Counted from the stretch's first letter, positions 2,800 through 54,404 are shown. The stretch: DNA of 64,000 nucleotides from an uncultured Pseudomonadota bacterium (GCA_903959175.1 CAJBVW010000056.1:42478-106477), one strand, 5' to 3'. Numbers and translations are program-made. Notes: generated by a model from the sequence alone, not told the origin.

Positions 2800-2800
2800 G

Positions 2801-23186: not shown

Positions 23187-23205
23187 ACTCCCGCCGCCTC
23201 CACCA
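23187..23205 (+). repeat. Left copy of a 19-bp direct repeat ACTCCCGCCGCCTCCACCA (putative att core, tRNA/tmRNA 3'-end-like)
   Basis: Identical 19-mer at 54386-54404. It lies 36 nt from the 3' end of the integrase gene. Confidence 0.85.
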
Positions 23206-23240
23206 TTTTTTCCTCAATGATTCCGGTGGCTTAGTCATGG

Positions 23241-24380
23241 CTAAGCCCCCTCTCCAGGGCCCGCGTGCCGCAAAAGTGCCGCGGAGTCCTCGGGGGGATC
23301 GAGGACCATCACTGCGTCCGCCTGGGCCTCGGGGCTCAGGTGGGCGTAGCGCTGGGTCATCTCGACGGTGCTGTGGCCCAGCAGCCGCTGCAGCACGTAG
23401 ATGCTCCCGCTCGCCATCACGAACTGTGAGGCGAAGCTGTGCCGCAGGTCGTGGATGCGGATGAGCCGCACGCCCGAGGCCTCGATCCCGCGCCGGAAGG
23501 GGTGCTTGACGCGGTTCGAGTCGAGGATCAGCCCCTCGTCCGACAGGAACACCCGCTCCTGCGTGGCGTACGCGAGCTTGTGCTCCGCCAACGCGGTGTA
23601 GAGCACCGGGCTCATCGGCACCGAACGGCCCTTGCCGCTCTTCGGCGTCGTCTCCGTCCCGTGGCTGTAGCTCCGCCGGACGTGGACCTTCCGGCTGGTC
23701 AGGTCCACGTCCGCCCAGCGCAGCGCCGCCAGCTCGCCCATGCGGAGCCCGGTGCGGAGCGCCGTGAGGAAGAACGGGTACCACCGCGGCCGCACCTCCT
23801 GGATCGCCTTGAGGAACCTCTCCGACTCCTCCGCGGTCCAGAAGCCGAAGTCCTCGTCCAGCCGGTCCACCCGGCAGGGCTTGACCTGCCGCGCCGGGTT
23901 CTCGGGGGCGTAGCGCCACTTCACGGCGTCCTCGAACATCGCGCCGAGCACGCCGAGGTGGTTGTTCACCGTCTTGGGGGAGAGGTCGCTCTTCGCGACC
24001 TTGTCGCTCTTGTACTTCTGGATGTCCTCGACCGTGATCGTGCGGATGGTCTTGGCCTTGAACGCGGGCAGGAGGTGGACCCGGAGGATCTGCTCGTAGC
24101 CGCGGTACGCGGTGGGCTTCCAGTCACCGCGCCGCGTGTCCTTCCAGTGCCCGGCGAAGTCGGCGAAGGGCGCGTCCTTCTTGACCTCCTCCGGCTTCGG
24201 CGGGGGCGTCGTCATCTTGTCGTGCAGGGCGCGCTCGTGGGCCAGCGCGTCGCGCTTGAGGGTCACCTCCTTCGGTGCGGCTTCGCGGTGCCGCTTCTTC
24301 TCCCCGGTGACGGGATGGTTGTAGGTGAAGTCGATCATCCAGCTCGTACTTCCCTTGTTCTCACGCTTGTACACGGACAT
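23241..24380 (-). CDS. int: Tyrosine recombinase / phage-type integrase
   Basis: 379 aa. C-terminal catalytic motifs ..GLRMGELAALRWADVDL.., ..IRIHDLRHSFASQ.., ..LLGHSTVEMTQRYAHL. Confidence 0.9.
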   Translation of the reverse strand: MSVYKRENKGSTSWMIDFTYNHPVTGEKKRHREAAPKEVTLKRDALAHERALHDKMTTPPPKPEEVKKDAPFADFAGHWKDTRRGDWKPTAYRGYEQILRVHLLPAFKAKTIRTITVEDIQKYKSDKVAKSDLSPKTVNNHLGVLGAMFEDAVKWRYAPENPARQVKPCRVDRLDEDFGFWTAEESERFLKAIQEVRPRWYPFFLTALRTGLRMGELAALRWADVDLTSRKVHVRRSYSHGTETTPKSGKGRSVPMSPVLYTALAEHKLAYATQERVFLSDEGLILDSNRVKHPFRRGIEASGVRLIRIHDLRHSFASQFVMASGSIYVLQRLLGHSTVEMTQRYAHLSPEAQADAVMVLDPPEDSAALLRHAGPGEGA

Positions 24381-24739
24381 CAGGACGCTCCCGAGCCGCG
24401 ACGGTCTGCCGAGGGAAGCGTAGCATCGGGCGGCGGGGACGTGGACCAGTTGTAGGCGGGGAGGTCGGAGAGGAGCGCCGGTGCGACGCGGGGGACCGGG
24501 CGAGGGCGCGGTGCCGCGGGGGGAGGCTCCGGGGCGTTCCGGCCGAGGGCGGCGAGCACGTTCGCGAGGTCGTAGCGGACGGTGCGATGGCCGAGCTTGT
24601 GAGACGGGATCTTGCCCTCGCAGGTCATGCGGCGGATCAGGCCGACGGTGACGTTGAGGAGGCGAGCGAGCTCGTGGGCGTCGATGAGGGCGGGGAGGGG
24701 GAGGTTGCGGGTCGGGGAGGGGGCGGTGGTGGTCGGCAT
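24380..24739 (-). CDS. xis: Excisionase-like / MerR-type HTH DNA-binding protein
   Basis: Start taken at the internal ATG 24739 (119 aa). HTH ..IDAHELARLLNVTVGLIRRMTCEGKIPSHKLGHRTVRYDLANVLAAL. The stop overlaps the int start (TGATG). Confidence 0.65.
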   Translation of the reverse strand: MPTTTAPSPTRNLPLPALIDAHELARLLNVTVGLIRRMTCEGKIPSHKLGHRTVRYDLANVLAALGRNAPEPPPAAPRPRPVPRVAPALLSDLPAYNWSTSPPPDATLPSADRRGSGAS

Positions 24740-24835
24740 GGTGCGGGCTCGTGGGACGGGAGGTATGTTCCGCACGTCAACATGAGGTACGGTGCTTGTC
24801 TGATACACCCATTAACATTAGTTGTCGAGGCGAAG

Positions 24836-25318
24836 ATGCCTGATCGTCCCCAGCGCAGCCCCCCCATCGTCGATACCGCGACGCTCTTCGGCCGTTGTGT
24901 CGCCGTGATGCGGAAGGACATCGGCCTTTCCCAGGGAGCCTTCGCCGAGCAGCTCGGCATCTCGCGGCCCTCGCTCACCCACATCGAGACCGGAAGGACG
25001 CCGCCGACGTTCTTCTTGCTTCTCAAGTTTGGCCAACACGTCGGCCGCCAGCGGCTCGACCGCGATGCGACCGCGCTGCTCGCCCTGCTTCACATGACGG
25101 CCACGGCGCTCCGTGCCGAGGGCATTCGGGTCAAGAACCGACCTCGCCGTGACACGGACGAGATCGTCGACGCCGCACGCATCGATCGCGTGGTCGGCCG
25201 AATCTACGACGGGGAGTTCAGGGAGGTCATCCCTGTGCGGGTCGTGACCTTCGACGGTGACGACGATGACGACGACGGACCCGTCCGGATCGTGAGGCCC
25301 GACTCCGATGCCGAGTGA
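24836..25318 (+). CDS. XRE-family HTH transcriptional regulator
   Basis: Start taken at ATG 24836 (160 aa). HTH ..MRKDIGLSQGAFAEQLGISRPSLTHIETGRTPP. Divergent from xis/int across a lower-GC 96-nt intergenic region. Confidence 0.75.
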   Translation: MPDRPQRSPPIVDTATLFGRCVAVMRKDIGLSQGAFAEQLGISRPSLTHIETGRTPPTFFLLLKFGQHVGRQRLDRDATALLALLHMTATALRAEGIRVKNRPRRDTDEIVDAARIDRVVGRIYDGEFREVIPVRVVTFDGDDDDDDGPVRIVRPDSDAE

Positions 25319-27587: not shown

Positions 27588-30500
27588 GTGAACCGCAACA
27601 CGATGGACGTCTTCACCCTCCGCGATTCCGTCGTCCGGGAGTACGAGCAGTTCGCCACGTCGTTCACGACCATCCACGCTGACGACATCCGCGCGCAGGT
27701 GGACGCGATCTACGCGCAGAAGCGGTACTGGCCCGAGCCGCTCATCCAGATCAATCCCCACTACAAGCGCACTACGACGATCGCCGAGCTCGTGGCCGGG
27801 GGCGCCCTCGACGCCGGCTGCGCGGAGATCTTCCTCTCCCCGCCGCCTGGGGAGGCGCCGGGCGGCGTGCCCATGACGGTCTACAAGCACCAGGAGGAGG
27901 CGATCGCGCTCGCCGGCGACGGCGAGAGCTATGTCGTCACCACCGGCACAGGGTCGGGGAAGTCGCTCTGCTTCTTCATCCCGATCGTGAACGCCGTCCT
28001 CGCCGAGAAGCGGCGCTCGGCCTTGAAGCGCACGCGCGCCATCGTGATTTACCCGATGAACGCGCTCGCCAACAGCCAGCTCGAGGAGCTTGCCAAGTAC
28101 ATTCCGGATCGGCCGGGCGGCCGGCCCGTGACCTTCGCGCGCTACACCGGACAGGAGAGCACCGAGGAGCGGTCCCTTATCGCGGAGAGCCCGCCCGATA
28201 TCCTGCTCACCAACTTCATGATGCTCGAACTGCTGATGACTCGGCAGGATGTCATCGATCGGCAGGTGATCGGGAACTGCGTGGGGCTGCGCTTCCTAGT
28301 TCTGGACGAGCTTCACACGTACCGAGGGCGCCAGGGCGCCGACGTCGCGCTCCTCGTGCGGCGCGTCCGCGAGCGGCTGTCCAATGATCTGCAGTGCATC
28401 GGCACCTCCGCCACCATGAAGAGCGACGGCACGGCCGAGGAGCGGGGCCGTGTCGTCGCCCAGGTGGCATCGAAGCTGTTCGCCGCAAAGATCGCGGAGA
28501 GCAGCGTCATCGGGGAGACACTCGAGCGGGTCACCGATCCGGCATCGACGCTCGAAACGGTGCGGCCACTGCTTATGCCTGCGATCGAGGCAGGGATCTC
28601 GGCAACGGTTACCGATGCCGAGCTGCGCGTCCACCCGCTCGCGGTCTGGGTGGAGACGAGCCTCGGCGTGACGCGCTCGGACGCGGACCCGAAGTGGCGC
28701 CGTGCGCCCCCGCTGACGGTCACGGAGGCGAGAGATCTCCTGAGCCGGGATTCCGGGTGTAGCGTAGACGCCTGTGGACGCGCGCTCCGCGAGCTACTCC
28801 TCGTCTCCAGCGTGCCTGAACGCGATCGGGTGCTCGGCTCGACGAAGTCCCAAAGCTTCTTCGCGTTCAAGCTGCATCAGTTCATCTCGGGCGCAGGCCA
28901 TGCGTTCGCGACGTTGGAGCCGCTCGGTCGGCGAAGCGTGACGGTGGAAGGCCAGCAGTTCTACCCGGAGCCGCCTGGGGACAAGCGGCTGTATTCGACG
29001 CACTTCTGTCGTGAGTGCGGGCAGGAGTACCACCCGGTTCGTCTGGTCACGGACGACGGACGGCGGATGGCCCTCGCGCGGACAATCGACGATGCGGCAA
29101 TGCCACCGAAGGACGACGCCGCGGAGGACCCGGATCCCGGCACGGAAGCCGAGGAGTTTGGCTTCCTCACCGTCGCGCCGACGGACATCGACTTCAGGTT
29201 CCAGGATGAGCCCGAGGACTACCCGGAGACTTGGCGCGAGTCGGACGCCGGCGGCAATGCCCGCGTGAAGCGCGAGTACCGGAACGCGCGCGCCAGGGGG
29301 CTGCGCGTAGAGCCCGATGGGCGCATCGGCACTGGCACGCCCGTCTGGTTCTTGCCGGGGAAGTTCCGCTTCTGCCTGCGGTGCGGAGAAACCCACAGCG
29401 GCTCGTCCCGCGATCGCAACCGGCTCGCATCCCTCTCCGCGGAGGGCCGCAGCTCCGCCACCACGGTGCTCGTCGCGAGCGTGCTCAAGTGGATGCACGG
29501 CGGCGACTCGGGGCTGGACGCATACACCCGCAAGCTCCTCGGGTTTACGGACAACCGCCAGGATGCCGCGCTGCAGGCGGGCCACTTCAACGACTTTCTC
29601 TTCGTCAGCCTGGTTCGCGCCGGATTCCTCGGCGCGTTGACGGCGGCGGGCGAGGCCGGGCTTAGCGCCGAGCAGCTCGGCATCGCGCAGCAGAAGGCCC
29701 TCGGCTTCGATCAGAGCACGCCCGAGATCAAGGCCGAGTGGCTCAACGAGCCCGATCTGGTGGGCTTCAACCTCATGGAAGCGGGCAAGACCCTGCGCGA
29801 GGTGCTCGCCTACCGCGCTTGGTTCGATCAGCGCCGCGGCTGGCGCTACACCAACCCCAATCTCGAGCAGCTCGGTCTCCTCTCGGTTCGGTACGAGGGG
29901 CTCGCTGAGCTCGCGGCTGACGACGCCCGCTTTGCCGGCGGACCTGACATCCTCCGCTTCGCGTCGGCGGAAGTTCGAGCCGCAATCTACACGACGCTGT
30001 TCGACCACCTTCGCACGGGGATGGCGATCCGGAGCCAGGTGCTCGACCCGCTCTCTGTGGAGCAAATCCACCAGCGGTCGACCAGCCGCCTCCGCGCGCC
30101 CTGGGGATTCGGATCGGACGAACGTCCTCGCCCTGGCCGCTGGCTGGTAGTCAAGGCGCCTCCTCGTCGCGCCTCGCGGGATGAGGACCTCTTCGTGCGT
30201 GGCGGCGCTCGGAGCGGGCTCGGCAAGAAGCTTCGCTCGTCCGAGCTCTGGAAGACGGATGCCATCCGCCAGCTCAAGACGGCCGAGTCCGACGAGCTCA
30301 TCCTCAAGCTCCTTGAGGTCGCGACTGTCCACGGACAGGTCACCCAGGAGTCCACCCCGTTCGACGTGCCCGGGTGGAAGCTCACCGATGCGTCCGTGGT
30401 GTTCAAGCTCGGCGACCCCACGGATCGCTCCGAACGTAAGAACGACAATGTTTTCTTCCGCGGCTTCTATCAAAGCCTCGCGACGATGCTCGTCAACCGC

Positions 30501-32891
30501 GACCACCCCCTGTTCGGGTTCGAGGCCCGCGAGCACACCGCGCAGGTGGAGCAGGAGAAGCGCCAGGTCCGGGAGAAGCGCTTCCGCTACGGGCAGAAGG
30601 AGCAGGAGGAGCTGGTTACGAGGGCCAAGGAGAATCGGGACATTGGGGAGAGCAGCCGCTTCCTGCCGGTGCTCTTCTGTTCCCCGACAATGGAGCTCGG
30701 CGTCGACATCTCCGCGCTCAACGCGGTCTACCTTCGCAATGTCCCGCCCACGCCCGCCAATTACGCGCAGCGCAGCGGCCGCGCGGGGCGAAGCGGACAG
30801 GCCGCGCTCGTCCTCACCTACGCCTCGGCCCAGGGCCCCCACGACCAGTACTTTTTCCGGGATCCGAAGGCAATGGTCCACGGCGAGGTGCGGGCTCCGA
30901 TGCTCGATCTGGCGAATCGGGACCTCGTGGACAGCCACCTGCACGCCGTCTGGTTGGCCTGTACCGAGAAGCCGCTGGACTCCGCTATCTCCGAGCTGCT
31001 CGTGCTCCCCGACCCCCATCGCCCGGTCTGCTCGGACGTGCGTGTACCGATGCAGGAGCCCCGGGTGGCCGTCGAGGCCGCCGCACGGATGGGCCGGGTG
31101 CTCGACCTCGTGGCGGAGTACCTCACCCCCGCGCTTGCACCCTGGTACGAAGGGCGTAATGAGCACGCACGCCTCGTCGCAGAAGGAGCGTTGGCGAACT
31201 TCGAGAAGGCGTTCAACCGCTGGCGCGAGCTGTTCCGAGCCGCCGAGCAGCAGCGCGATGCCGCGCGCCGCACCATGGACGACCACGCTGCGCCGCCCGC
31301 CGAGAAGCGCGCGGCGAAGACCCGTCACGACCAGGCCATCGACCAGCTCAATCTGCTTCAGCAGGGCGACAGTAGCCGCACCGCGAGCGACTTCTACACC
31401 TACCGCTACCTCGCCACCGAGGGATTCCTCCCGGGGTACAACTTCCCGCGCCTCCCGCTGATGGCGTACGTCCCCAAGGCCGACCCGCGTGGCCGGCAGA
31501 CCTACCTCCAGCGTCCGCGCTTCCTGGCGCTCTCCGAGTTCGGCCCGCGCAGCCTCGTCTACCACGAGGGCCGGGCGTTTCGGGTCGTTCGCGCCATGCT
31601 CTCCTTGGGTCACCGCGACGGCGCCACGGCGGACACCAAGCTCCCGACGGAGACGATCCGCATCTGCAAGAGCTGCGGGGCGGGACACTTCGAGGAGGTC
31701 TCCGTCTGCCATGCCTGCCAGCAGCCGCTCGGAACCGCGGAGATCGTGAACAACGTACATCGCATCGAGAACGTGGCGACTCACCCCGCCGAGCGCATCA
31801 CTGCCAACGACGAGGAGCGCCAACGCCAGGGCTTCGACCTGCAGACCACCTTCCAGTGGGCGATCCGCGACGGCGTAGTCGACGCGCGGCCGGGGGCGGC
31901 GGCCGACGCCCACGGCGAGATCGTGCGGCTCTCCTACGGCCCGGGGGCGCGGATCACGCGCTTGAACAAGGGTTTGCGTCGCCGCGCGAACAAGACCGAG
32001 CTCGGCTTCTGGATCGACCCCGTCTCCGGCTACTGGTCCAAAAACACCGACGAGGAGGACCAGACCCCCGACCCCACCGTGGCCCCCGCGCAGCTCATCG
32101 TCCCCATCGTGCGCGACCACAAGAACGCGCTCCTCGTACAGCCCGTCGGCGTCAACCTTGCCGACCGCACCCTCACCACGGTTCAACACGCGCTCCTGCG
32201 CGGGGTCGAGACGGTGTACCAACTCGAACAGGGCGAGATCCTCGCCGAGCCGATGCCCTCGCGGGACGCCCGGAACGGGTTCCTGCTCTACGAGGCCACC
32301 GAGGGCGGCGCCGGCGTGCTCACCCGCATCGTTTCGGAGTCCGACTCGCTGGCGAAGGTGGCCCGCAAGGCGCTGCAGGTCATGCATTACGACGTTCCGG
32401 AGGCGGGGCCGCTCCCGGGTCACGAATCCGCCTTATCCGACGTCGCAGACACCCGCTGCGTGGCCGGCTGCTACCGCTGCCTGCTCTCCTACTACAACCA
32501 GCCCGACCAGGAGTTCATCGATCGTCGGGACCCGCGCGCGAAGGAGATGTTGCTCCGCTTGGCGGGCGCCACGACGACTGGACTTCAGCGGGCCGCAGCG
32601 AGCGCTCCAGCGACCCCGCCGTCTGCGGCCGACCCGACGCTGGTGCGGTGGCACGCTGCGGCGAGAATGCTCGCGCTGCCCCCGCACGATGCCGAGCCGA
32701 AGATCGTGGGAGAGGACAGCGTGCCGTTCATCTGGCGCGCGCACTACGTTGCCGCCGTGCTGCCTGATACCGACCCCGCCACGCTGGCCGCCCTCGAAGC
32801 AAGCGGCTTCGACGTGGTGGTCTTCAGCGACGAACCCACTTGGCCGGAGGCGTTCACGCGCCTGGCCCGCTTCCTCGGACGCCCCCAATGA
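27588..32891 (+). CDS. drmA: DISARM-type DEAD/DEAH helicase fused to a DUF1998/MrfA-type Zn-binding domain (DrmA-DrmB fusion)
   Basis: 1767 aa. Helicase motifs VVTTGTGSGKSLCF, LVLDELHTYRGRQG, GTSATM, GVDISALNAVYLRNVPPTPANYAQRSGRAGR. C-terminal Cys clusters CKSCGAGHF..CHACQQPL and RCVAGCYRCLLSYYNQPDQEFIDRR are typical of DUF1998. GTG 27588 or ATG 27603. Confidence 0.8.
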   Translation: MNRNTMDVFTLRDSVVREYEQFATSFTTIHADDIRAQVDAIYAQKRYWPEPLIQINPHYKRTTTIAELVAGGALDAGCAEIFLSPPPGEAPGGVPMTVYKHQEEAIALAGDGESYVVTTGTGSGKSLCFFIPIVNAVLAEKRRSALKRTRAIVIYPMNALANSQLEELAKYIPDRPGGRPVTFARYTGQESTEERSLIAESPPDILLTNFMMLELLMTRQDVIDRQVIGNCVGLRFLVLDELHTYRGRQGADVALLVRRVRERLSNDLQCIGTSATMKSDGTAEERGRVVAQVASKLFAAKIAESSVIGETLERVTDPASTLETVRPLLMPAIEAGISATVTDAELRVHPLAVWVETSLGVTRSDADPKWRRAPPLTVTEARDLLSRDSGCSVDACGRALRELLLVSSVPERDRVLGSTKSQSFFAFKLHQFISGAGHAFATLEPLGRRSVTVEGQQFYPEPPGDKRLYSTHFCRECGQEYHPVRLVTDDGRRMALARTIDDAAMPPKDDAAEDPDPGTEAEEFGFLTVAPTDIDFRFQDEPEDYPETWRESDAGGNARVKREYRNARARGLRVEPDGRIGTGTPVWFLPGKFRFCLRCGETHSGSSRDRNRLASLSAEGRSSATTVLVASVLKWMHGGDSGLDAYTRKLLGFTDNRQDAALQAGHFNDFLFVSLVRAGFLGALTAAGEAGLSAEQLGIAQQKALGFDQSTPEIKAEWLNEPDLVGFNLMEAGKTLREVLAYRAWFDQRRGWRYTNPNLEQLGLLSVRYEGLAELAADDARFAGGPDILRFASAEVRAAIYTTLFDHLRTGMAIRSQVLDPLSVEQIHQRSTSRLRAPWGFGSDERPRPGRWLVVKAPPRRASRDEDLFVRGGARSGLGKKLRSSELWKTDAIRQLKTAESDELILKLLEVATVHGQVTQESTPFDVPGWKLTDASVVFKLGDPTDRSERKNDNVFFRGFYQSLATMLVNRDHPLFGFEAREHTAQVEQEKRQVREKRFRYGQKEQEELVTRAKENRDIGESSRFLPVLFCSPTMELGVDISALNAVYLRNVPPTPANYAQRSGRAGRSGQAALVLTYASAQGPHDQYFFRDPKAMVHGEVRAPMLDLANRDLVDSHLHAVWLACTEKPLDSAISELLVLPDPHRPVCSDVRVPMQEPRVAVEAAARMGRVLDLVAEYLTPALAPWYEGRNEHARLVAEGALANFEKAFNRWRELFRAAEQQRDAARRTMDDHAAPPAEKRAAKTRHDQAIDQLNLLQQGDSSRTASDFYTYRYLATEGFLPGYNFPRLPLMAYVPKADPRGRQTYLQRPRFLALSEFGPRSLVYHEGRAFRVVRAMLSLGHRDGATADTKLPTETIRICKSCGAGHFEEVSVCHACQQPLGTAEIVNNVHRIENVATHPAERITANDEERQRQGFDLQTTFQWAIRDGVVDARPGAAADAHGEIVRLSYGPGARITRLNKGLRRRANKTELGFWIDPVSGYWSKNTDEEDQTPDPTVAPAQLIVPIVRDHKNALLVQPVGVNLADRTLTTVQHALLRGVETVYQLEQGEILAEPMPSRDARNGFLLYEATEGGAGVLTRIVSESDSLAKVARKALQVMHYDVPEAGPLPGHESALSDVADTRCVAGCYRCLLSYYNQPDQEFIDRRDPRAKEMLLRLAGATTTGLQRAAASAPATPPSAADPTLVRWHAAARMLALPPHDAEPKIVGEDSVPFIWRAHYVAAVLPDTDPATLAALEASGFDVVVFSDEPTWPEAFTRLARFLGRPQ

Positions 32892-35683
32892 ACCAGACCG
32901 TCTACAGCCCCGGAAGCCTCGTGAGCGCCCGGGGTCGCGAGTGGATCGTACTCGCCGGGAGCGACGCCGAGATCCTACACGTGCGGCCCGTCTCCGGCTC
33001 CGAGGAAGACAGCACTCTCATCCATCTCGCTCTCGAAGCCGAACCCGTGCGGGATGCCCGTTTCCCGCTCCCGGTCGCCGAGCAGCGTGCGAGCCACGAC
33101 GCCGCCCTGCTCCTCCGCGACGCGCTCCTCCTCTCACTGCGTCGCGGCGCCGGGCCCTTCCGCAGCTTTGGGCAAATCTCCGTGGAGCCGCGGGCCTATC
33201 AGCTCGTCCCGCTGCTCATGGCGCTCAAGCTCGATCCGGTGCGGCTCCTCATCGCGGATGACGTCGGCGTCGGCAAGACCATCGAGGCCGCCCTCATCGC
33301 GCGGGAGCTCATCGACCGGGGGGACGTCGACCGCACCACCGTGCTCTGCCCGCCTCATCTCGTCGAACAGTGGGTCACCGAGCTCGAGGAGCGCTTTCAC
33401 ATCCACGCCGTGGCGGTCACGTCCGCGTCCGCCAGCCGGCTCGAACGCGATCTCCCCCCCAGCGTGAGCGTCTTCTCCGCCTACCCCCACACTGTCGTCA
33501 GCCTCGACTACATCAAGAGCGACAAGCGACGGGCCGACTTCCTTCGTGCCTGCCCGAACTTCGTCATCGTGGACGAGGCCCACACCTGCGCCGCCGCGGG
33601 CCAGGGCCGCCACCAGCGATATGAGCTCCTCAAGGGCCTGACCGAGTCCCCCGATCGACACCTCGTGCTGCTCACGGCCACGCCCCACAGCGGGGACGAG
33701 GCCGCGTTCTACCGGCTCCTCGGCCTGTTGGATCGTGACTTCCAGGGCATCCCCGATACGTCCGAAGCCGAGCGCACCCGCCTCCGCGACCGCCTCTCGC
33801 GCCACTTCGTCCAGCGCCGCCGTCCCGACATCGCCGAGTGGAACGAAGGGGATCTCTTCCCCCGGCGTGAAACGGCCGAGGTGACCTACCGCCTCACGGG
33901 CGCGTGGGAGCGGTTCTTCGCGTCCGTACTCGCGTACTGCAGGGGCATCGTGGAGCGGGCAGGGGAGGACGAGCGCCGCCAGCGCATGAGCTTCTGGAGC
34001 ACGCTCGCCCTCATGCGGTGCGTTGGCTCGAGCCCGGCCGCCGCCGTGATGGCGCTCCGCACACGCGCCGGCCTCCAGGAGGATCAAGAGGCCGAGGACC
34101 TGCGGGAGCGGGTGTTCGACGGCGCATCCGACGCGCTCTCGGACGACGACGTCGAGCCCTCCGTGGGGGTCGATGCCGCCGAGGTGCTCTCGCTGATTCT
34201 CCAGGCCGAGGAGCTCGTCTCGAAGTCAGGAGATCCCAAGCTCGACGAGCTCACCAAGCACCTCCAGGCGCTGATCAACGAGGGCTTCAACCCCGTCGTG
34301 TTCTGCCGATACATCGCGACCGCGCACTACATCGGACGGCACCTTTCCACGCGCTTCAAGGGGGTCACGGTTGGGGTCATCACCGGTGACATCACGTCGG
34401 AGGAGCGCCGCGAGAAGGTGGACAGGCTCGTCGAGGACGCCGATCGACGCCTGCTCGTCGCCACCGACTGCCTCTCCGAGGGCGTGAACCTCCAGGCCGG
34501 CTTCGACGCCGTCGTTCACTACGACCTCTCGTGGAACCCCACCCGCCACGAACAGCGCGAGGGTCGCGTTGACCGCTTCGGCCAGAAGAGCAAGAAGGTA
34601 CGCGCCACGCTGATGTACGGGGCGAACAACCCGGTAGACGGCGCCGTGCTGGACGTCATCCTCCGCAAGGCCGAAAAGATCCGCCTGGAGCTCGGTGTGC
34701 CGGTGCCTCTCCCGGACGATGGCCACACGCTCACCCAAGCGCTCCTCAAGGCAGTGCTCCTCAAGCAGCCCACCGAGGCTACGGGGCAGCAGCCCCTCTT
34801 CATGAACCTCTCGCCCGCCCGGAAGATCGACGAAATCTGGACCGACGCCGCTGAGCGCGCGAAGCGGAACCGAACGGTGTTCGCGCAGCGCCGACTGAAG
34901 CCGGAGGACGTGCTCCCCGAGTGGCGCAAGACGCTCGCGGTGGTGGGTGGCGAGCGCGAGGTGCATCGCTTCATGGACCGCGCGCTCGCGCGCCTCGGGT
35001 CCGGCCTGGAGCCGCTCAAGCGCGGCTTCAAGGCGCCGCTCGCTCCGCTGCCCGACGACGTCCAGGAGCGGCTGGAGGCCGAAGGTCTCTCTGGCACCCT
35101 GCTGGTCGACTTCGCGTACCCCCCGTTTGGCCGTTGCCGCCCTGTCCAGCGCAGCCACCCCCTCGTCTCCGTGCTCGCAGAGACGTTGCTCGAGCGCACC
35201 CTTTCGAGCCCGACCCACGACACCGACCCCAACCAGGGCGTGCTCGGGCGCGTGGGATGTTGGGTGTCTGACGCCGTTACGTCCCGCACCACAGTCGCCT
35301 TGCTGCGCTGCCGCCACCAGCTCCTGGCGCAGAGGGGGCGCCGCGCCACCACGCTACTCGTGGAGGAAGCGACGGGAATCGCGTGGGGCGGCCCTGCGGG
35401 GACGCTCATCGCCGAGGGCGACGATGCTCTTGAGCTGCTCGCACCCCCTCCCGTGGGGGACCCCCCCGAACATGTGCGGGCGCGTGTCGTCGCCGCCGCC
35501 CTGGAACAGCTCGGCGCGCGCCTGGCCGACGTTGATGCCCTCGCCGAGCGGCGGGCGCAGGCCCTCCTCGCCGACCACGAGCGGGTGCGGGCGTCCGCGC
35601 GCGCCGCGGGGGCGACCACCGTCCAAGCGCTCCTGCCCCCGGATGTGATCGCCCTCTTCGTGCTGCTCCCGCGGGTCGGCTGA
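32888..35683 (+). CDS. drmD: SNF2-family helicase (DISARM DrmD-like)
   Basis: Start ATG 32888 (ATGA overlap with the upstream stop); 931 aa. Motifs LIADDVGVGKTIEAAL, FVIVDEAHTCA, LLTATPHSGD, LVATDCLSEGVNLQ, HEQREGRVDRFGQ. Confidence 0.8.
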   Translation: MNQTVYSPGSLVSARGREWIVLAGSDAEILHVRPVSGSEEDSTLIHLALEAEPVRDARFPLPVAEQRASHDAALLLRDALLLSLRRGAGPFRSFGQISVEPRAYQLVPLLMALKLDPVRLLIADDVGVGKTIEAALIARELIDRGDVDRTTVLCPPHLVEQWVTELEERFHIHAVAVTSASASRLERDLPPSVSVFSAYPHTVVSLDYIKSDKRRADFLRACPNFVIVDEAHTCAAAGQGRHQRYELLKGLTESPDRHLVLLTATPHSGDEAAFYRLLGLLDRDFQGIPDTSEAERTRLRDRLSRHFVQRRRPDIAEWNEGDLFPRRETAEVTYRLTGAWERFFASVLAYCRGIVERAGEDERRQRMSFWSTLALMRCVGSSPAAAVMALRTRAGLQEDQEAEDLRERVFDGASDALSDDDVEPSVGVDAAEVLSLILQAEELVSKSGDPKLDELTKHLQALINEGFNPVVFCRYIATAHYIGRHLSTRFKGVTVGVITGDITSEERREKVDRLVEDADRRLLVATDCLSEGVNLQAGFDAVVHYDLSWNPTRHEQREGRVDRFGQKSKKVRATLMYGANNPVDGAVLDVILRKAEKIRLELGVPVPLPDDGHTLTQALLKAVLLKQPTEATGQQPLFMNLSPARKIDEIWTDAAERAKRNRTVFAQRRLKPEDVLPEWRKTLAVVGGEREVHRFMDRALARLGSGLEPLKRGFKAPLAPLPDDVQERLEAEGLSGTLLVDFAYPPFGRCRPVQRSHPLVSVLAETLLERTLSSPTHDTDPNQGVLGRVGCWVSDAVTSRTTVALLRCRHQLLAQRGRRATTLLVEEATGIAWGGPAGTLIAEGDDALELLAPPPVGDPPEHVRARVVAAALEQLGARLADVDALAERRAQALLADHERVRASARAAGATTVQALLPPDVIALFVLLPRVG

Positions 35684-43210: not shown

Positions 43211-44883
43211 GCGAGAGCGACAACGGCGAGGGCCGCCACCTCGACTACAAGTCGCTCCGCAAGGTCACGGGCACCTCGGCGGACTTCCCGAGCCTCGCTC
43301 AGGACTGCGTATGCTTCGCCAACGCCGCGGGCGGGCGCATCCTCGTGGGGATCGAGGACGACGGGTCTCCTCCCGACGCGTCCCAGCGCATCGACCCCGC
43401 GCTCCCCGATCGCCTCCAGAAGCGCATCGGCGAGCTCACGGTCAACGTGCGCGTCCTCACCGAGGTCGCGCGGCACGCCAACGGCGGCGAGTACGTTGTC
43501 CTCACCGTCCTCCGCGCGGGCGGCGTGGCCTCCACCAGCGACGGGCGCTTTTTCGTCCGCATCGGCGACACCTGCCGCCCCGTTGTCGGCGACGAGGTGG
43601 TGCGGCTCCTCGATGAACGCCCCACCGAGCCCTGGGAGACCCTCGCCACGCTGGATGTGCCCCGCGCCCAGGCCGATCCTACCGTGCTCGCGCGCCTCGT
43701 GGCGGGCCTGCGCGCGTCCGACCGCGTGAAGTCCTCCGTAAAGGAGAAGTCGGACGACGAGCTCCTCGCCCACTACACGCTCGTCCGGGCCGGCCGCCTC
43801 ACCAACCTCGGCGTGCTGCTCGTCGGCACCTCCGCGGATCGCGCCCGGCTCGGCACCGCCCCCGTGGTCCAGGCCATCAAGTACGACGAGCGCGGCGCGA
43901 AGGTCGCCAAGTACGTCTGGGACGACCACACGCGCTCCCCGATCGAGCTCGTGGACGCCATCTGGCAGGAGATCGCCGACTTCCGCGAGGCCTACGAGCT
44001 CCCGGTCGGCATGTTCCGCGCCACCATCCCGGCATTCGACGAGGCCGTCATCCGCGAGCTGCTGGTCAACGCGCTCGTCCACCGCCCCTACACCCAGCGC
44101 GGCGACATCTTCTTGAACCTCCACCCGGATCGTCTCGAGGTCGCGAACCCAGGGCGCCTCCCGCTCGGGGTGACGCCCCGGAACGTGCTCCATGCGAGCC
44201 GCCGCCGCAACGACGGCCTGGCCCGCGTCTTCCACGATCTCGGCCTGATGGAGCGGGAGGGGAGCGGGTTCGACCTGATGTACGAGCTGCTCCTTGCGAG
44301 CGGACGTGCGGTGCCCACCGTCACCGAGGGTGTCGACTCCGTGCATGTCACGGTGCCGCGCCGCGTCATGCAGCCCGGCGTCATCCGCCTCCTCGCCGAC
44401 GCGGACCAGCGCCACCAGCTCACCCAGCGGGAGCGCATCACGCTCGCGCTCCTGGCGCAGACCGAGGGGCTCACCGCCCCCGATCTGGTCGAGCGGCTCG
44501 CGCTCGACGACGCCCGCGCGCTCCGCGGCTGGATCGCGCGCCTCTGCGACCTCGGGCTCGTGGCGCAGTCCGGCCGCACCAAGGGCACGCGCTACCATGT
44601 GCCGCCTGAGCTCCTGCGCTCCGTCGGCCTCGACCATGCGACCACGCTCGCCCGCGTCCAGCCGCACCGCCTCCGCGCCCTGGTGCTCGAAGACCTCGAG
44701 CGCTTCCCGGACTCCGGCCGCGGAGACATCCACCGGCGCATCGGCAAGGAGATCCACGAAAAGGCGCTTAGCCGTGCCCTCGAGGAGCTCGTCGTAGGCG
44801 GGCAGGTGCTCGCCGAGGGCGAGCGCCGGTGGCGTCGGTACCGTCTCGCGGCCCCGACCGCTAAAGGACACGAACCGAGCTGA
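43207..44883 (+). CDS. AlbA_2 (Schlafen-like) domain protein with an HATPase_c_4/wHTH C-terminal part ('RecG-like' putative regulator)
   Basis: Start ATG 43207 (ATGA overlap with the MTase-2 stop); 558 aa. AlbA_2 motifs EGRHLDYKS..CFANAAGGRILVGIEDDG. C-terminal motifs IRELLVNALVHRPY..IFLNLHPDRLEVANPGRL, RRRNDGLARVFHDLGLMEREGSGFD, and wHTH-like repeats. Confidence 0.8.
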   Translation: MSESDNGEGRHLDYKSLRKVTGTSADFPSLAQDCVCFANAAGGRILVGIEDDGSPPDASQRIDPALPDRLQKRIGELTVNVRVLTEVARHANGGEYVVLTVLRAGGVASTSDGRFFVRIGDTCRPVVGDEVVRLLDERPTEPWETLATLDVPRAQADPTVLARLVAGLRASDRVKSSVKEKSDDELLAHYTLVRAGRLTNLGVLLVGTSADRARLGTAPVVQAIKYDERGAKVAKYVWDDHTRSPIELVDAIWQEIADFREAYELPVGMFRATIPAFDEAVIRELLVNALVHRPYTQRGDIFLNLHPDRLEVANPGRLPLGVTPRNVLHASRRRNDGLARVFHDLGLMEREGSGFDLMYELLLASGRAVPTVTEGVDSVHVTVPRRVMQPGVIRLLADADQRHQLTQRERITLALLAQTEGLTAPDLVERLALDDARALRGWIARLCDLGLVAQSGRTKGTRYHVPPELLRSVGLDHATTLARVQPHRLRALVLEDLERFPDSGRGDIHRRIGKEIHEKALSRALEELVVGGQVLAEGERRWRRYRLAAPTAKGHEPS

Positions 44884-45045: not shown

Positions 45046-45786
45046 ATGCTTCAACCACCGGAGGACGCCATGGGGATGAAGAGGGACATCAAGGACCAGG
45101 TCGTGCAGCTGCTCGCGCCAGGGGAGTACGAAACCCAGTTGTCCGACACCCCTCCAGGGCCTGGCGACAACCGGCTCACGTTCAAGAACAGCGGCGTCCG
45201 CTTCAAGGCCGTGGTCCTTTACATCGACATGCGGGGCTCCACGGCGGTCCTCAACGCCCACAAGCCGCACAGCGTCGCGAAGATCCACAAGGCCTACCTG
45301 TTCCTCGCCACCAAGCTGATCGTGGAGCGGGGCGGGCAGGTCCGCAGCTACAACGGCGACAGCATCCTGGCGTTCTTCCCGGGCAGCTCGAAGGAGGTCG
45401 TCACGCGGGCGGTTCGCGCGGCCATGGAGATCAAGTACATGCTGGCCACCGAGTGTCGGGCGGAGTTCGACCGGTTCAGCGGACTCGACTTCGGAATCGG
45501 CATCGACGTTGGCGAAATCCTCTGCGTGAAGGCGGGGATTGCTCGGAACGACAACCACAACGACCTCGTGTGGCTCGGGAACGCGGTCAATCGGGCAACG
45601 TGTCTGAGTGACGCCGCCAAGCACCCGTTCCAGGTGTGGGCGTCGCAGGAGGTGCGCGACCTGATGGAGGAGCCCATTCGAGTCCAGGGGCCATACCGGG
45701 TAGAGCGCTGGACCCACGCTCGGTTCGAGTACAACAGCCGATACGAGTGGGGTTGGTCCACCGCCAGCGAGTGGGCCGTGGAGTGA
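45046..45786 (+). CDS. pycC: Class III nucleotidyl cyclase, Pycsar PycC-like
   Basis: 246 aa. Cyclase motifs AVVLYIDMRGSTAV (metal Asp), RSYNGDSILAFF (second Asp), GIGIDVGEILCVKAGI, VWLGNAVNRATCLSD. Possible alternative starts at ATG 45070/45076, downstream of GGAGGA (45060-45065). Confidence 0.8.
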   Translation: MLQPPEDAMGMKRDIKDQVVQLLAPGEYETQLSDTPPGPGDNRLTFKNSGVRFKAVVLYIDMRGSTAVLNAHKPHSVAKIHKAYLFLATKLIVERGGQVRSYNGDSILAFFPGSSKEVVTRAVRAAMEIKYMLATECRAEFDRFSGLDFGIGIDVGEILCVKAGIARNDNHNDLVWLGNAVNRATCLSDAAKHPFQVWASQEVRDLMEEPIRVQGPYRVERWTHARFEYNSRYEWGWSTASEWAVE

Positions 45787-46679
45787 AGTCTCGCTTTGAA
45801 GGAGAAGAAGGGCGCCGCCGCGCCCTCGACGTGCTGCTCGACAACTCTGCCGTCCGCGGACACCGGCCGTTGGCGGAGGCCTTGCTCGCTGCGGCGGACC
45901 TCCGCGAGCACGCCGCGGGCGAGGCGTTATTGACCCAGGATCGGCCGGGCAGCGAGCTCGCCTTCCTGCTCGCCGGCGAGGTGGAGGTGCGGGTGAACCG
46001 GCGACTCGTGGCGATCCGCTCGGCCCCCGCGCACGTCGGAGAGATGGCGGCGATCGATCCGAAGGCGGATCGCGCCGCGACGGTCCTCGCCCGCAGGCCG
46101 ACCGTCGCCGCCTGGGTCGCGGAGCCCGAGCTGACGCGCATCGCCATGGAGTTCCCGGAGCTCTGGCGAGGCTTCGCCCGGGTGCTCGCGGATCGGCTCC
46201 GCGAGCGCCGTGCCTTCCACCGCGCCCCCAATGATCGGCCCCGAGCCTTCATCGGCTCCTCGGTAGAGGGGCTGCCCGCCGCTCGTGCCCTGCGGGTCGA
46301 GATGGACCGCGATCCCATCGCCCTCCACGCCTGGCCCGAGCGCACCTTCCGCCCCTCGCACTACACCCTCCCCGACCTCCTCGCGGAGGTGGATGCCTGC
46401 GACTTCGCCATCTTCTGCCTCACCGGCGACGACGTGCTCACGAGCCGGGGGGGCACGGCATCCGCGCCTCGAGACAACGTGGTGCTCGAGATCGGCCTGT
46501 TCCTTGGCCGCCTCGGTCAGGAGCGCGTACTACTGTTGCGTCCCCGAGGCGTGGCCCTCAAGCTACCCAGCGACCTCGACGGGCTCGGAACGATCGACTT
46601 CGTGGCTGGAGAACCCCCCGATCTCGCTGTAGCCGCAGAGCGGGTACGCCGGGTCGTGGTGAAGCTCGGTGTGCGATGA
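45783..46679 (+). CDS. pycTIR: cNMP-binding domain fused to a TIR-like domain (Pycsar effector, PycTIR-like)
   Basis: Start GTG 45783 (GTGA overlap with the cyclase stop); 298 aa. The N-terminal half is CAP_ED-like (..[44 protein letters not shown]). The C-terminal half is TIR-like (..[17 protein letters not shown].., ..[12 protein letters not shown].., ..[24 protein letters not shown]). Confidence 0.8.
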
Positions 46680-46749
46680 TGCGCCGCACGCCCCCCAATC
46701 GAATCGCCCTCCTCGCAACGCGCACGATCCGTGCGTCTGGAACAGCCGA

Positions 46750-49245
46750 ATGAGCTACTCCTGGATCCCCCTGTACGAGGACCTCGCCACCCGAATCCTG
46801 AAGTGGGAAGGGCGCCAACCCGAGCTCCTCGCCATGCTCGCCGGCATCAAGGCCACCGGCCTACCGATGGTGAAGCTGGACGACAAGGGGCCGAACGGCG
46901 AGGTGCCTCTCGCCGCAATCGATCCCTTCACGTTCTTCGCTTCGTTCAACCGACATACCACGTTGGACAAGCGCCTCGAGATCCTCAAGCGAGTCCGCGA
47001 CGGTCTCGGGTCCACGCTGCCGCTCCCGACGGACTTCGACGGGCTGCCGCTCACCGACAACCAGCAGTCGTGGTTCTTCGGCTGGGCGAACGAGCGAAAG
47101 CCCGACGACATCCCCTCTTTGTGGGCGCTCCTGCGGCAGGCGATCGACGGCGGCCGCGCGGGCATCGTACCGGCCACCTTCGACCGGTGCCTCACGGTGA
47201 AGTCGGTCAAGATCGCCAAGTTGACGATGGGGCTGTTCTGGGTGCGCCCCACGGAGTTCATGCCGTTGGAGGGGCAATCGCAGGCCTATCTGCGCAGGTG
47301 CGGCGTGGCGCTCCCCGCCGTTGTCGGCAGTTGGGCGCAGTACGGGCAGGTGCTCGACACGACCATCGCGAGTCAGGGGGCCGACTTTCCGGCCCTCTCG
47401 CACGCCGCCTTCCTCAAGCAGGGGGAGGGGCAGCGGTATTGGGCAGGTGGCCACCAGTTCGGGGAGGAGTCCAAGCTCCAGGAATTCCTCGACCAGCGGG
47501 TCTGGTACATCGGGCATCTGAAGGCCTCCGAGAAACGGGGAGGCCAGGCGGCGTGGAAGCGCTTCCCCTCCATCCAGCCGGGTGATCTCTTCGCGCTCAA
47601 GGGCTTCGGCGGGCAGAACGTGCTGAAGATTCATGCCCTCGGGCGCGTGGACACGGTCGATGCGGAGGAGGGCCACCTCACGTGGACGCCGGTGGAGGGT
47701 ACGCCCCTTTTCCACGGAAAGCCGCCGGCAGGGCCGGGCGGGGGCACATGGTTCGAGACGCTGTGCGAGGTCACGGAAGCCGCCTGCCGCAAGGCGGTGT
47801 TCGGTGTCGGGGAAGCGGAGAAGAAGCAGGGGGTGTCCGCCCCGTCCAAGGAGAAGCCCGCCGCCGCGAAGGAGAAGCAAGTGGTGTTCACGCCGCCGAA
47901 GCACCCCCTCAACCTCATCTTCCACGGTCCGCCGGGGACGGGCAAGACCTGGCGCATGCGCCGGATGCGGGCGGATTTCACGCTGAAGATCACGGGCCCG
48001 ACGGCTCCTGTTCCCGTCCTCGACGTGGCGGACCTCACCTGGTTCGAAGTCGTGGCCCTCGCCCTCCACGACATGAAGGTGCCGAGTTCCACGCCTGCGA
48101 TCGTAGAGCACCCCCTGGTGCAGGCCAAGTATGTGGAGCGCGCACCGCAGACGCGATTGAGTCCCTTCGTCTGGAACCAGCTCCAGACGCACACGGTCAA
48201 GGCATCCACCACCGTGAAGTATGAGTTCCGGACCGGGCTCCTCGTGTTCGATCGGAATGCAGAGGGGCATTGGTTCCTCCCGGCCGGCTTGCCCGAGGAG
48301 CTCCTCGCCAAGGCGAGCCTCGGGAAGCAGGACGTGCCCGTGGCGGACGCCCCGCCCGACAACCAGTTCCTCATCACGTTCCACCCGTCGTTCACCTACG
48401 AGGACTTCGTGGAGGGCATCCGGCCGGAGAGCGGGGAGCAGGAGACGGACCCGGTTCGCTATCCTCTCGTCCCGGGCATCTTCAAGCGGGCCTGCGAGCG
48501 CGCGGTGCAGCTCGCGGGGTTTACGGCGGGCCTCGCGGCGTTCTGCGAACTGGCCCCGGCGGAGCGGAAGAAGCTGCTCGCGACCGCGGCGCCGACCGTC
48601 CTGTTCATTGACGAGATCAACCGTGGCAACGTTGCCAGGATCTTCGGCGAGCTCATCACGCTCATCGAGCCCGACAAGCGCCTGGGCGCCGAGGAGGAGT
48701 TGATCGTCACCCTCCCCGGCTCGCGAAAGCCGTTCGGTGTGCCGTCCAACCTGTGGATCGTGGGGACGATGAATACGGCGGATCGGAGCGTCGTGGCGCT
48801 CGATGTGGCGCTCCGGCGGCGGTTCGCGTTCCAGGAGTGCACGCCCGAGTCGACGGAGCTCGCGGGCGTGACGGTCGACGGGGTCGATCTCGGCGCGCTC
48901 CTCCGCACCGTCAATCAGCGTCTCGCCGTGCTCCGGGACCGCGATCACCTCATCGGCCACGCCTTCTTCTGGCCGATGAAGGCCCATGAGGAGCGGCGCA
49001 CCCTCGACGAGCTCCGGCGCGTGTTTCGGGAGAGCATTGTGCCGCTGCTCTTAGAGTACTTCCACGACGACCTCGGGCGGGTCGGGCTTGTCCTGGGCAA
49101 GGCCTTCGTGTCACGCCAGGCCGCCGCGACGTCCTTTGCCGACTTCGCGCACGAGCACAAGGAGGACCTCGCCGAACGCCCCGTGTGGGTCCTCGCGGAT
49201 CCGAGCACGCTGCCGATCGAGGCGTTCAAGAAGATCTATGCGTAG
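46750..49245 (+). CDS. mcrB: McrB-family AAA+ (GTPase) restriction subunit with a long N-terminal region
   Basis: Start taken at ATG 46750 (831 aa). AAA_5/McrB motifs [70 protein letters not shown]. Confidence 0.85.
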
Positions 49246-50593
49246 CGTGCGCTTTGTCGTTCATGAGCATCAACGCCTCGTCGTGGGCGTGGGGTACGAC
49301 GACGGGCGTGGCGGGCTCGCGACGTTCGAGGACCATCACTTCGACGCGCTCGCGAAGTATCGGGAACGCACGGAGTCGCAGGCGTTCACGCTCGGGCACC
49401 GGAGCATCCGCCTGTGCCAGCACGTCGGGTACCTCCGCGTCGGCTCCGTTTCCCTGGAGATCTACCCTAAATTGAGCCAGGACCGGCCCGAACAGGAATG
49501 GCGGGGCCTGTTGTTTCACATGCTCCGTGTCGTGAGTGGCGTGCGGCTCGCGCCGCAGGACCAGGCGCCGCTCATGCATCGCGCGGGTGACCTTTTCGAG
49601 ATGTTGCTCGCGCGCTTCGTGGAACTCACCCGTGCACTCGTGCGGGAGGGGCTCGCGCGGACGTACCGGGAGGTCCAGGAGAACGGCACCGTCTTCAGGG
49701 GCCGGCTGGTCGTGGGCGCACACCTCCGGGAGAACATTGTCCGGAAGGAACGGCTGTATGTGGCCTACGAGGTGCATGACGCCGACAACCTTCCGAACCG
49801 CATCCTCCACCGCGCCCTCGACCGGGTGCTCAAGACCACGGGCTCGCCCGATCTGGCACGGCAGGCCGAGGCCGCGCTCGCCGACTTCCCGGATGTCTCC
49901 CTCGCGCCGATCCGAGACTCAGAGTGGAGCACCCTCCGCTTTGACCGGCGCACCGAGCGGTACCGGGAGGCGCTGGTCCTCGCGCGGATGATCCTCCGGG
50001 ACGAGCGCCCCGATTTCCGCTGGGGGGATCAGCGGGTGATCGCTTTGCTCTTCGACATGAACGCGCTCTTCGAGTCCTACCTCTACGAGGCGCTTCGGGG
50101 CCTGTCCGGCGTCAGCGTGCGTTCCCAATCGCCGCACCGTTTCTGGAGGCCCGCCACGGGCGCTGCCGCGTGGCTGAAGCCAGACCTCCTCGTCTCGGTG
50201 CATGGCTCTTCGGCGCCGATCGTGCTCGACGCCAAGTGGAAGATCCCTAAGAAGGGGCGCCCTGCCGACGACGATCTCCGCCAACTGTTTGCGTACCTCC
50301 ACGCTTTCGGTAGCGCGGAGGGCGCGCTCGTGTATCCCCGCGCCAACGGTACGCAGACCGATACCAGTGGCGACTTCCTCGCCGGCCCCCACAGCGGACG
50401 AGTCGTACACCTCGACCTCTTCGCCGGGGGCGCGCCGAACCTCGTGGCGTTCCGCGAGTCGGCGCGGGACGCGCTCGGGCTACCCGGCGCGCCTACCGTC
50501 GCGGAGCCTGACCCGGACACGGCGGTCCCATCCGTCCCGTTCGCGTTCGCCAGCGCGGATCCGCGGCCGCCTGTTCAGGAGCAGTGGTCGTAG
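49238..50593 (+). CDS. mcrC: McrC-like nuclease subunit
   Basis: Start ATG 49238 (8-nt overlap with mcrB); 451 aa. Motifs [17 protein letters not shown] and a PD-(D/E)xK-like core [13 protein letters not shown]. Confidence 0.8.
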
Positions 50594-51355
50594 ATGATGC
50601 TGTCTCCCTCGCTCCCTACCCGACTCGCGAAGGCCGCCGAGGACAACGGCTTCGATCTCGACCGCGTCGTTGACGGAATGTGGCTCGGCTTCGCGAGCAG
50701 CCACGTTCCGCTGCGCGTCTGGTTGACGGCCTACGGAGACGTCGTCGTGGTCGCCTTTTCCCACGCCAACGTGTGGCGATCCCTCGCCGGCCTCGGAGCT
50801 TCGTTCTCGAGCCCGTTGCCGGAGGGCGCGTGCGGCGCGCGTGGGGTCACCAGCTACGACCAGCTGCACCACCTGCTTCGCCGCGCCTTCCTCCTGTCGC
50901 GGGCGCTCCCCGACGAGCTCTGGAAGGCGTTCGCCGACAAGACCGCGACCCTCCCGCGCACCACCGAGGCCGAGCGACTGGTTGTCCAACGCGTCGGCCA
51001 GGACATGTTCCGCGGGGGCCTTCTCGACTTCTGGGACGGCCGCTGCGCGATCACCGGGCTCGCCGTCCCCGCGCTCCTTCGTGCGAGCCACATCAAGCCG
51101 TGGGCGGCCTGCGACCTCGACGCCGAGCGGCTCGACGTGTTCAACGGCTTCCTGCTGGCGGTGCACCTCGACGCGGCGTTCGACGCCGGCCTGATCACCG
51201 TCGCGGACGACGGTGCGGTCGTGGTGTCGGAGGAGCTCGACGGGGACGCGCGGGCGCTGCTGGCCCTCGACCGGCCCGTGAGGGTGAGGGGGCTCGCCGA
51301 CGGGCATCGGCGGTATCTGGAATGGCATCGGAAACGGGAGTTCGGGGCCCGGTAG
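50594..51355 (+). CDS. HNH_2-type endonuclease (putative restriction endonuclease)
   Basis: 253 aa; the ATG follows the mcrC TAG directly. Motif RCAITGLAVPALLRASHIKPWAACDLDAERLDVFNGFLLAVHLDAAFDAGLITV. Confidence 0.8.
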   Translation: MMLSPSLPTRLAKAAEDNGFDLDRVVDGMWLGFASSHVPLRVWLTAYGDVVVVAFSHANVWRSLAGLGASFSSPLPEGACGARGVTSYDQLHHLLRRAFLLSRALPDELWKAFADKTATLPRTTEAERLVVQRVGQDMFRGGLLDFWDGRCAITGLAVPALLRASHIKPWAACDLDAERLDVFNGFLLAVHLDAAFDAGLITVADDGAVVVSEELDGDARALLALDRPVRVRGLADGHRRYLEWHRKREFGAR

Positions 51356-54109: not shown

Positions 54110-54385
54110 CCCCCGCGGGGGGCGCTCGCCACGTCGACCCGATCCGGATCCGAGCGCCGCTGGGGACCAGCGAACACTTCAGATTTACGACGACCGAGTC
54201 CGACGCCGGCGAGCGCCCCCACCCAAGTGGGGCGCTTCCCGCGTGCCGCAGCCGTGCCGCGGACACCGGAAAGCAACCCCGGCCACCGGCAATCACGAGA
54301 AGAAAGGGGAGGGGCGAAAGCCCACGTCCTACGGGGCAGACCGCCGCGACAACCTTGGTTTTGGTTGACCGCGAAGACGTCTTCG

Positions 54386-54404
54386 ACTCCCGCCGCCTCC
54401 ACCA
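54386..54404 (+). repeat. Right copy of the 19-bp direct repeat ACTCCCGCCGCCTCCACCA (putative attR core)
   Basis: Identical to 23187-23205. It is preceded by the T-loop-like cTTCGact and followed by a terminator. Confidence 0.85.

Follow-up and report, generated by a model that had tools for sequence, protein, structure and literature searches.

The two 19-nt direct repeats that bracket a 31.2-kb segment of this DNA are very probably the att cores of an integrative island, island B, which is the distal one of two tandem islands lodged in the 3' end of the tmRNA gene (ssrA). The window, by which we mean the whole analysed stretch of 64,000 nucleotides from an uncultured Pseudomonadota bacterium, has a G+C content of about 70% and holds all of island B together with most of its neighbor, island A. 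The order along the chromosome is the tmRNA gene, island A, a core copy, island B, a further core copy and the native terminator. Island A measures 33,377 bp from core to core (33.4 kb) and island B 31,199 bp. An intact tmRNA gene stands at the proximal end of the array, a direct-orientation fragment of the tmRNA 3' end closes the distal end of each island (19 nt for A, 23 nt for B), each island carries its own integrase at its tDNA-proximal end (int458 and int379, respectively), and the clades of both integrases are consistently tied to a tmRNA target. Islander defines islands and tandem arrays by such an arrangement, and the tmRNA gene is its most enriched target (Hudson et al. 2015, PMC4383910). 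Conceptually, the array is ordinary and represents a textbook arrangement.

The window has two exact copies of the repeat, ACTCCCGCCGCCTCCACCA, one at 23187-23205 and the other at 54386-54404, in the same orientation (plus strand) and 31,199 bp apart, as an earlier reading of the sequence alone had reported. No third copy was found in the window, even with up to three mismatches allowed. The length of 19 nt was rejected as evidence, since an exhaustive exact-repeat search of the same window returned two further, unrelated exact 19-nt direct repeats (36348/59442 and 24943/29666). The pair is non-random because it equals the tmRNA 3' end: the organism's tmRNA gene ends in exactly these 19 nt. 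The left copy is identical to the tmRNA over these 19 nt (23187-23205), and the right copy over 23 nt (54382-54404), running from the TTCG of the T-loop through CCA; the T-loop-like sequence that had been noticed before the right copy is this TTCG, which extends the identity. The proposal of an RNA gene whose 3' end is the repeat and whose acceptor stem has a G3:U70 pair agrees with a tmRNA that starts with GGGGGCG and ends with CGCCTCCACCA. The target had been described as of tRNA-Ala or tmRNA type, of which the tmRNA half stood, as it is a tmRNA gene that ends in the 19-mer, and the tRNA-Ala half did not. ARAGORN and Rfam detect no tRNA or tmRNA body in the window, so that neither copy is preceded by one, again as first read. 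The view that chance alone, in G+C-rich DNA, produced the two 19-mers, which would bound nothing, could appeal to the two other repeats of the same length, but it is already refuted and keeps practically no probability. It is opposed by the match to the tmRNA 3' end, 23 nt long at the right copy, by an integrase that adjoins the left copy at a 35-nt spacing common to four other genomes, by the displaced terminator beyond the right copy, and by the paired arm motifs in island B.

The intact gene lies to the left of the window, which was extended leftward via contigs encoding exactly the same proteins. Contig L001 is 100% identical to window positions 1-8540 and reaches 9,903 nt further left, where a second integrase gene (458 aa, minus strand) runs off the contig end. 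Contigs L046-L048 (100% identity) and L045 (99.99% identity to L001) carry the exact int458 along with a 369-nt tmRNA detected by ARAGORN, and the near-identical tmRNA of L004 and L005 scores 95-97 bits, full length, with Rfam RF00023. Coordinate transfer from the identical contigs places the tmRNA gene at about window -10540 to -10172, on the plus strand, and its terminal core at -10190 to -10172, on the same strand. The sequence-only reading had predicted an intact RNA gene left of the window and had suggested running ARAGORN there; the gene found, a tmRNA ending in the 19-mer, lies about 10.2 kb away, beside the second integrase. The tag peptide of this tmRNA reads AANNSNHFSEALAA, starting from GCU GCC, and is canonical-looking. 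The tags given by ARAGORN for the tmRNA of L005 (4735-5103) and L004 (11270-11638), EVPEA and ATTSARPSRLS, each followed by a stop, look wrong, the reading being AANNSNHFSEALAA and a stop instead.

The int458 ORF (L045 6731-8107) crosses the attL core and continues about 80 nt into the antisense of the tmRNA (L045 8008-8376), an overlap that falls outside the window on its left, at about -10290 to -10172. Its read-through C-terminus is ...KNGGGGGSRTRVRSPFK, and the same GGGGGSRT read-through is seen in the homologues P0001, P0003 and P0006. Since the ORF reads into the tmRNA, the C-terminus of the integrase would differ between the integrated and the excised state. An Mx8-like nature of int458, after the Myxococcus phage with attP inside int, was considered and rejected, as int458 has no similarity to any phage record.

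At the left junction of island A, the tmRNA sequence ...GCGGGTTCG runs into the core and then into TTTTTTCGGAAAG on the int458 side. At the A/B junction, ...CCCCCGGCAC at the right end of A is followed by the core and by TTTTTTCCTCAATG on the int379 side of B, and at the right junction of island B, ...GACGTCTTCG at the right end of B is followed by the core and by CTACTTGAACGCCCGC... of the chromosome. The native right-hand side of the junction, after the core, reads CTACTTGAACGCC. The core copy at 23187..23205 (plus strand) is attR for island A and also attL for island B, and the attR of island B at 54382..54404 (plus strand) is the displaced 23-nt tmRNA 3' fragment, TTCG followed by the core at 54386-54404. 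With a complete tmRNA and int458 further left and int379 to the right, the left copy is indeed the junction of two tandem islands that had been proposed.

Beyond the right core, after a gap of 6 nt, begins an intrinsic terminator (54411..54454, plus strand), whose 15-bp stem and T run occupy 54411-54444 and which stands 64.6 kb from the tmRNA gene. In the nearest island-free relative, L040, a related MAG of the Myxococcota, the 3' half of the tmRNA is identical and no integrase lies within 6.6 kb; its tmRNA is directly followed by a similar AACGCCCGC...GCGGGCGTT hairpin. This supports the hairpin at 54411 as the displaced native terminator of the tmRNA gene, in keeping with the earlier claim that the terminator right after the right copy marks the displaced flank of an RNA gene (attR). 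As a putative empty site, L040 lends only partial support, its region downstream of the tmRNA not being syntenic with the right flank of the window; tblastx matches between L040 and this flank were discarded as compositional noise. Straight after the CCA of the regenerated tmRNA, a T-rich run, TTTTTTC, occurs at window 23206-23212, in the attL of L045 and L005, and in the attL of L058-L062, where the native site has its hairpin terminator 6 nt further on. This run may act as a substitute termination or processing signal.

Just inside the left core, a spacer starting TTTTTTCCTCAATGAT... (23206..23240, plus strand) separates the core by 35 nt from the stop codon of int379 (23241..24380, minus strand). 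The product is a tyrosine integrase with a Pfam Phage_integrase match (1.4e-26) and a SAM-like N domain; it matches the PHROG 1 integrase at 1.9e-74, and its catalytic R, HxxR, H and Y are all present. Adjacent to it, an excisionase-like HTH protein of 119 aa (24380..24739, minus strand) is a candidate Xis/RDF, matching PHROG 66 excisionase at 8.4e-7 and Pfam HTH_17 at 1.9e-5, the latter under the gathering score, and an Xis-like gene also adjoins the int379 homologues in relatives. The int/xis pair first noticed inside the left copy is thereby recovered. Divergent from xis-int, a HTH_31/HTH_3 regulator is encoded at 24587..25318 (plus strand), with an uncertain start codon. An apparent sequence divergence of contig L017 at window position ~24760 was rejected as strain variation; the first 70 nt of L017 are an Illumina TruSeq adapter, an assembly artefact at the contig end. 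No virion or packaging genes and no relaxase or T4SS genes were found among the ORFs of island B with Pfam and PHROG, and each island amounts to a minimal mobility module (int, xis or HTH regulator) with a load of anti-phage systems. The identity between int379 and int458 is only 28%, and only in the catalytic domain; the two are therefore independent solutions to the same target, in line with what is known of tmRNA targeting, which has evolved independently (PMC10121019).

The link between each integrase and the tmRNA gene recurs in other genomes. Homologues of int379 with 93% (L058), 67% (L060, L061) and 59% identity (L062, an Alphaproteobacteria MAG), in three other genomes, end at a distance of 35-36 nt from the same 19-mer, and in all of them this closes a complete tmRNA. 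The attL of L058 is identical to that of the window for about 60 nt, and a gapless alignment of six related attL sequences shows the core and TCAATGAT to be invariant, with a repeat, CGTGCC...GTGCC, at a constant offset. In L019, from the JGI metagenomes, an identical tmRNA likewise bears a B-like island, and int458 homologues adjoin a tmRNA with the same 19-mer in L004 and L005. The homologue in L059 (78% to int379) sits at a core copy that no tmRNA body precedes, and this is therefore another internal tandem junction; there, in L059 1-7194, the int379 homologue stands beside a second integrase with a 2027-aa DEAD/MZB helicase nearby, a cargo similar to that of island B.

These relatives also bear on an account in which the 64.6-kb array is a single composite element gained in one acquisition, with the internal 19-mer as a relic of accretion in a previous host. 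Tandem islands can move jointly via their outermost sites, accretion has been discussed (PMC3146451), and the order of events is unreadable from the junction sequences. However, a B-type island occurs alone at the tmRNA gene in the related genome L058, an A-type island with different cargo occupies the tmRNA gene in L004, and the two islands of the window differ in arm sites and have unrelated integrases. We consider a single acquisition quite improbable.

Heterobivalent integrase/Xis systems of the lambda type use a core-type site, phased arm-type sites on both arms and a small HTH excisionase. In island B, a candidate P' arm-type site, CCCGCGTGCCGCAAAAGTGCCGCGGA (23260..23285, plus strand), is contained in the 3' end of int379, 54 nt in from the left core, and a candidate P arm-type site, CCCGCGTGCCGCAGCCGTGCCGCGGA (54238..54263, plus strand), lies 122 nt inside the right core. 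The underlying 26-nt motif CCCGCGTGCCGCAnnnGTGCCGCGGA, two GTGCCGC units spaced 11 nt apart, has only these 2 matches in the window against 0 expected, and the position of the P' site is conserved in relatives. For island A, a candidate arm-type site of the form GGGACAC-N4-GGGACAC is located at 23052-23069 (plus strand), 117 nt from the right core (1 match in the window, 0.02 expected), and the GGGACAC pair recurs on the int458 side, 54 nt away from the core (L005, L004). The right, distal arm of island A (22985..23186, plus strand) is non-coding and pyrimidine-rich, with a strong C/T tract on the plus strand at 23090-23170, between the GGGACAC repeats and the core. Near both ends of both islands the sites are phased at 11 bp, and the two islands have one arm geometry in common: the tandem site is some 55-60 nt away from the core toward the integrase and some 120 nt away at the opposite end. 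Judging by their position, phasing and conservation, we infer that the GTGCCGC and GGGACAC pairs are arm-type integrase sites. The core with phased arm-type sites on both arms and the HTH excisionase gene beside int are shared with lambda-type systems; unlike in those systems, arm-site binding is here presumed, and the target lies inside an RNA gene.

The following course of recombination would account for this anatomy. In the circular island, attP would contain the tmRNA 3' segment, 23 nt for B and 19 nt for A. Int would bind the core and the flanking arm-type sites (GTGCCGC pairs for B, GGGACAC pairs for A) and would recombine attP with the tmRNA 3' end, as established for tyrosine integrases. 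The island-borne copy would complete the tmRNA, while the original 3' fragment and its terminator would be pushed to the far end, and Xis would direct the reverse reaction, excision. Island B may have inserted first, followed by A into the regenerated gene, or island A may have inserted first, followed by B into the attR of A; the junction sequences alone do not tell the insertion order.

Whether the islands would still move bears on a further reading, in which the scars are genuine but B, and perhaps A, is fixed, making this a fossil array and the 64.6-kb region a stable chromosomal defence locus. The right-flank gene retrieved nine contigs with DNA; in all of them (9/9) attR bears the right end of island B, and none shows an empty site, an excised circle or a B-less variant. 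These contigs are 99.9-100% identical and probably sample one population, and since they may be clonal, the lack of variation among them says little. The junction scans recovered neither a circle (GACGTCTTCG-core-TTTTTTCCTCAATG) nor a restored or empty junction (A right end-core-CTACTTGAAC). A degenerate scan of all nine left/right junction combinations in the JGI metagenomes returned only the tmRNA genes of other organisms and L019; the window's own junctions are absent from this set as well, so the source population is not there and the negative is uninformative. The exact attR junction had 0 matches in the genome contig collection, and viral contigs gave no junction matches, containing only distant relatives of int379. 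As the source population is apparently missing from these collections, their negatives weigh little. Fixation is opposed by the state of island B itself, in which both cores are exact, int379 retains all its catalytic residues and an xis partner, and the arm motifs are intact at both ends. Additionally, one 73.8-kb contig (ERZ1426768), available as gene coordinates only, carries xis and int379 followed by the housekeeping genes of the tmRNA side, spaced exactly as int379, 35 nt and core/tmRNA would predict, which suggests an arrangement without island A. This contig is suggestive of a B-only state or of a product of island A excision. On balance, we regard fixation as rather unlikely.

As the unrelated integrases have the same core and arm geometry, the stacked islands could act as a platform. 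A combinatorial platform for defence cassettes, built on two integrase lineages, one core and one arm geometry, in which any pair of the three cores recombines and moves A, B or A+B, is a speculative extension that we think improbable. On the same reading, the ERZ1426768 contig could have caught island A in the course of excision within a natural population, and the T6 run that both islands supply directly after CCA may have been selected to replace the displaced tmRNA terminator.

The cargo of island A comprises a type I R-M system, an AAA_15 ATPase, a PLD and SNF2 pair, pVip, a PPDK_N protein and Wadjet. The upstream island with R-M, pVip and Wadjet that had been read from the sequence is therefore real, with pVip matching at 8e-75 and JetD of Wadjet at 6.5e-75 beside the type I R-M genes. 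The pVip gene lies at 11252-12679, and its surroundings (10881-15339) include a DHH-family ORF (10881-11774), an opposite-strand PPDK_N/PEP-utilizer protein (12653-14689) and an unassigned 292-aa ORF; these genes may be accessory to pVip or form a separate system.

Island B carries a DEAD/Helicase_C helicase of 1767 aa with a C-terminal DUF1998 (MZB) domain (27588..32891, plus strand; Pfam, PADLOC). In PADLOC, this protein scores 298 bits with DruE and 63 bits with DrmA, and by sequence it resembles DruE or a DrmA-DrmB fusion; DUF1998/MZB occurs in island B only as this C-terminal domain (1.1e-8), with no separate DrmB gene. It is followed on the same strand by a SNF2 helicase of DpdE/DrmD-like type (32840..35683; PADLOC DpdE 596 bits, DrmD 266 bits) and by two tandem DrmMI or type IIG-like N6-adenine methyltransferases (35718-39254 and 39200-43210; Pfam, PADLOC 245 and 217 bits). 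The two methyltransferase genes are paralogous, sharing exact repeats up to 27 nt and stretches with 74-82% nucleotide identity, and the pair looks like a duplication with diverged regions. The DrmD SNF2 helicase and the DrmMI adenine methylase are the genes that DISARM calls for, although DpdE outscores DrmD. DrmC, the PLD nuclease that forms the core triplet of class 1 DISARM together with DrmA and DrmB, is missing, as no PLD domain was found in any scanned ORF of island B and the sole PLD protein (5183-7309) belongs to island A, so the DISARM label fails a defining feature. The earlier naming of DISARM thus held in part, for the DrmD and DrmMI matches, and failed where the DruE and DpdE profiles score above DrmA and DrmD and where PLD is absent; judged on these profiles, the helicase/methylase module should best be called DISARM/Druantia-like.

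Downstream, still on the plus strand, lie a Schlafen AlbA_2 and HATPase_c_4 protein identified by domain matches (43207..44883) and then Pycsar, with the PycC cyclase at 45046-45786 and a cNMP-binding TIR effector extending to 46679 (PADLOC PycC 3.8e-56, PycTIR 4.8e-90; effector domains cNMP_binding and CAP12-PCTIR_TIR). A McrB-like AAA_5 protein, McrC and a HNH_2 endonuclease complete the series (46669..51355, plus strand; Pfam AAA_5 3e-13, PF10117 McrBC 5.8e-61, HNH_2 4e-12). Both the Pycsar and the McrBC cargo had been named correctly, with PycC beside a cNMP-sensing TIR effector and the McrB-like protein beside McrC. Between 51434 and 54412 the coding is ambiguous, with either one 851-aa ORF on the minus strand or ORFs of 281 aa, 59 aa (Fic-like_C) and 386 aa on the plus strand; none of the ORFs of this region has a convincing family match, and the 386-aa plus-strand ORF, which crosses the attR core, is probably spurious.

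Williams reportedly described tandem islands lying in genes for tRNA and tmRNA in 2002 and 2003 ('Traffic at the tmRNA gene'). The present array shares with the tandem islands of Islander/TIGER the intact tDNA at one end, the direct 3' fragment at the far end of each island and one tyrosine integrase per island in the tDNA-proximal position; there is no difference in principle, and the host lineage (uncultured, probably Myxococcota), both integrase clades and the cargo are new instances. In Dehalococcoides, tandem ssrA islands are bounded by 20-bp repeats (McMurdie et al. 2011, PMC3146451). These also have the integration module on the reverse strand beside attL and lack conjugation genes, but their recombinase is of the serine type (DsiB), with reductive dehalogenase genes as cargo, whereas here tyrosine integrases with Xis and a defence cargo are found. 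The E. coli tmRNA locus is defence-island hotspot #9, and several integrase subfamilies target tmRNA independently (Hochhauser et al. 2023, PMC10121019). Both cases have the tmRNA gene as a landing pad for diverse elements with anti-phage systems; in contrast to the E. coli hotspot, two stacked islands, neither phage nor conjugative, are present here, in what is probably a different phylum, with pVip, Wadjet, type I R-M, DISARM/Druantia-like, Pycsar and McrBC as cargo.

The concepts are unchanged, given that no landing pad for islands of this kind is better known than the tmRNA gene and that tandem arrays are documented. The gain lies in the precise limits now set for the two mobile defence islands of an uncultured high-G+C lineage (33.4 and 31.2 kb) and in the identification of two integrase clades whose tmRNA target, of 19-23 bp, is defined; these provide two enzyme-target pairs for integrase bioprospecting. 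For annotation, the uncharacterised genes of both islands become candidate defence genes, and the array offers a worked example for island-finding pipelines.

The chromosomal flank to the right of the array (57483-64000) contains a protein with weak copper monooxygenase matches, both under the Pfam gathering scores (E about 1e-3 to 2e-4). It also encodes MukF, MukE and MukB-like proteins (MukB_N 2.3e-61), and the G+C content climbs to about 80% in the MukB gene.
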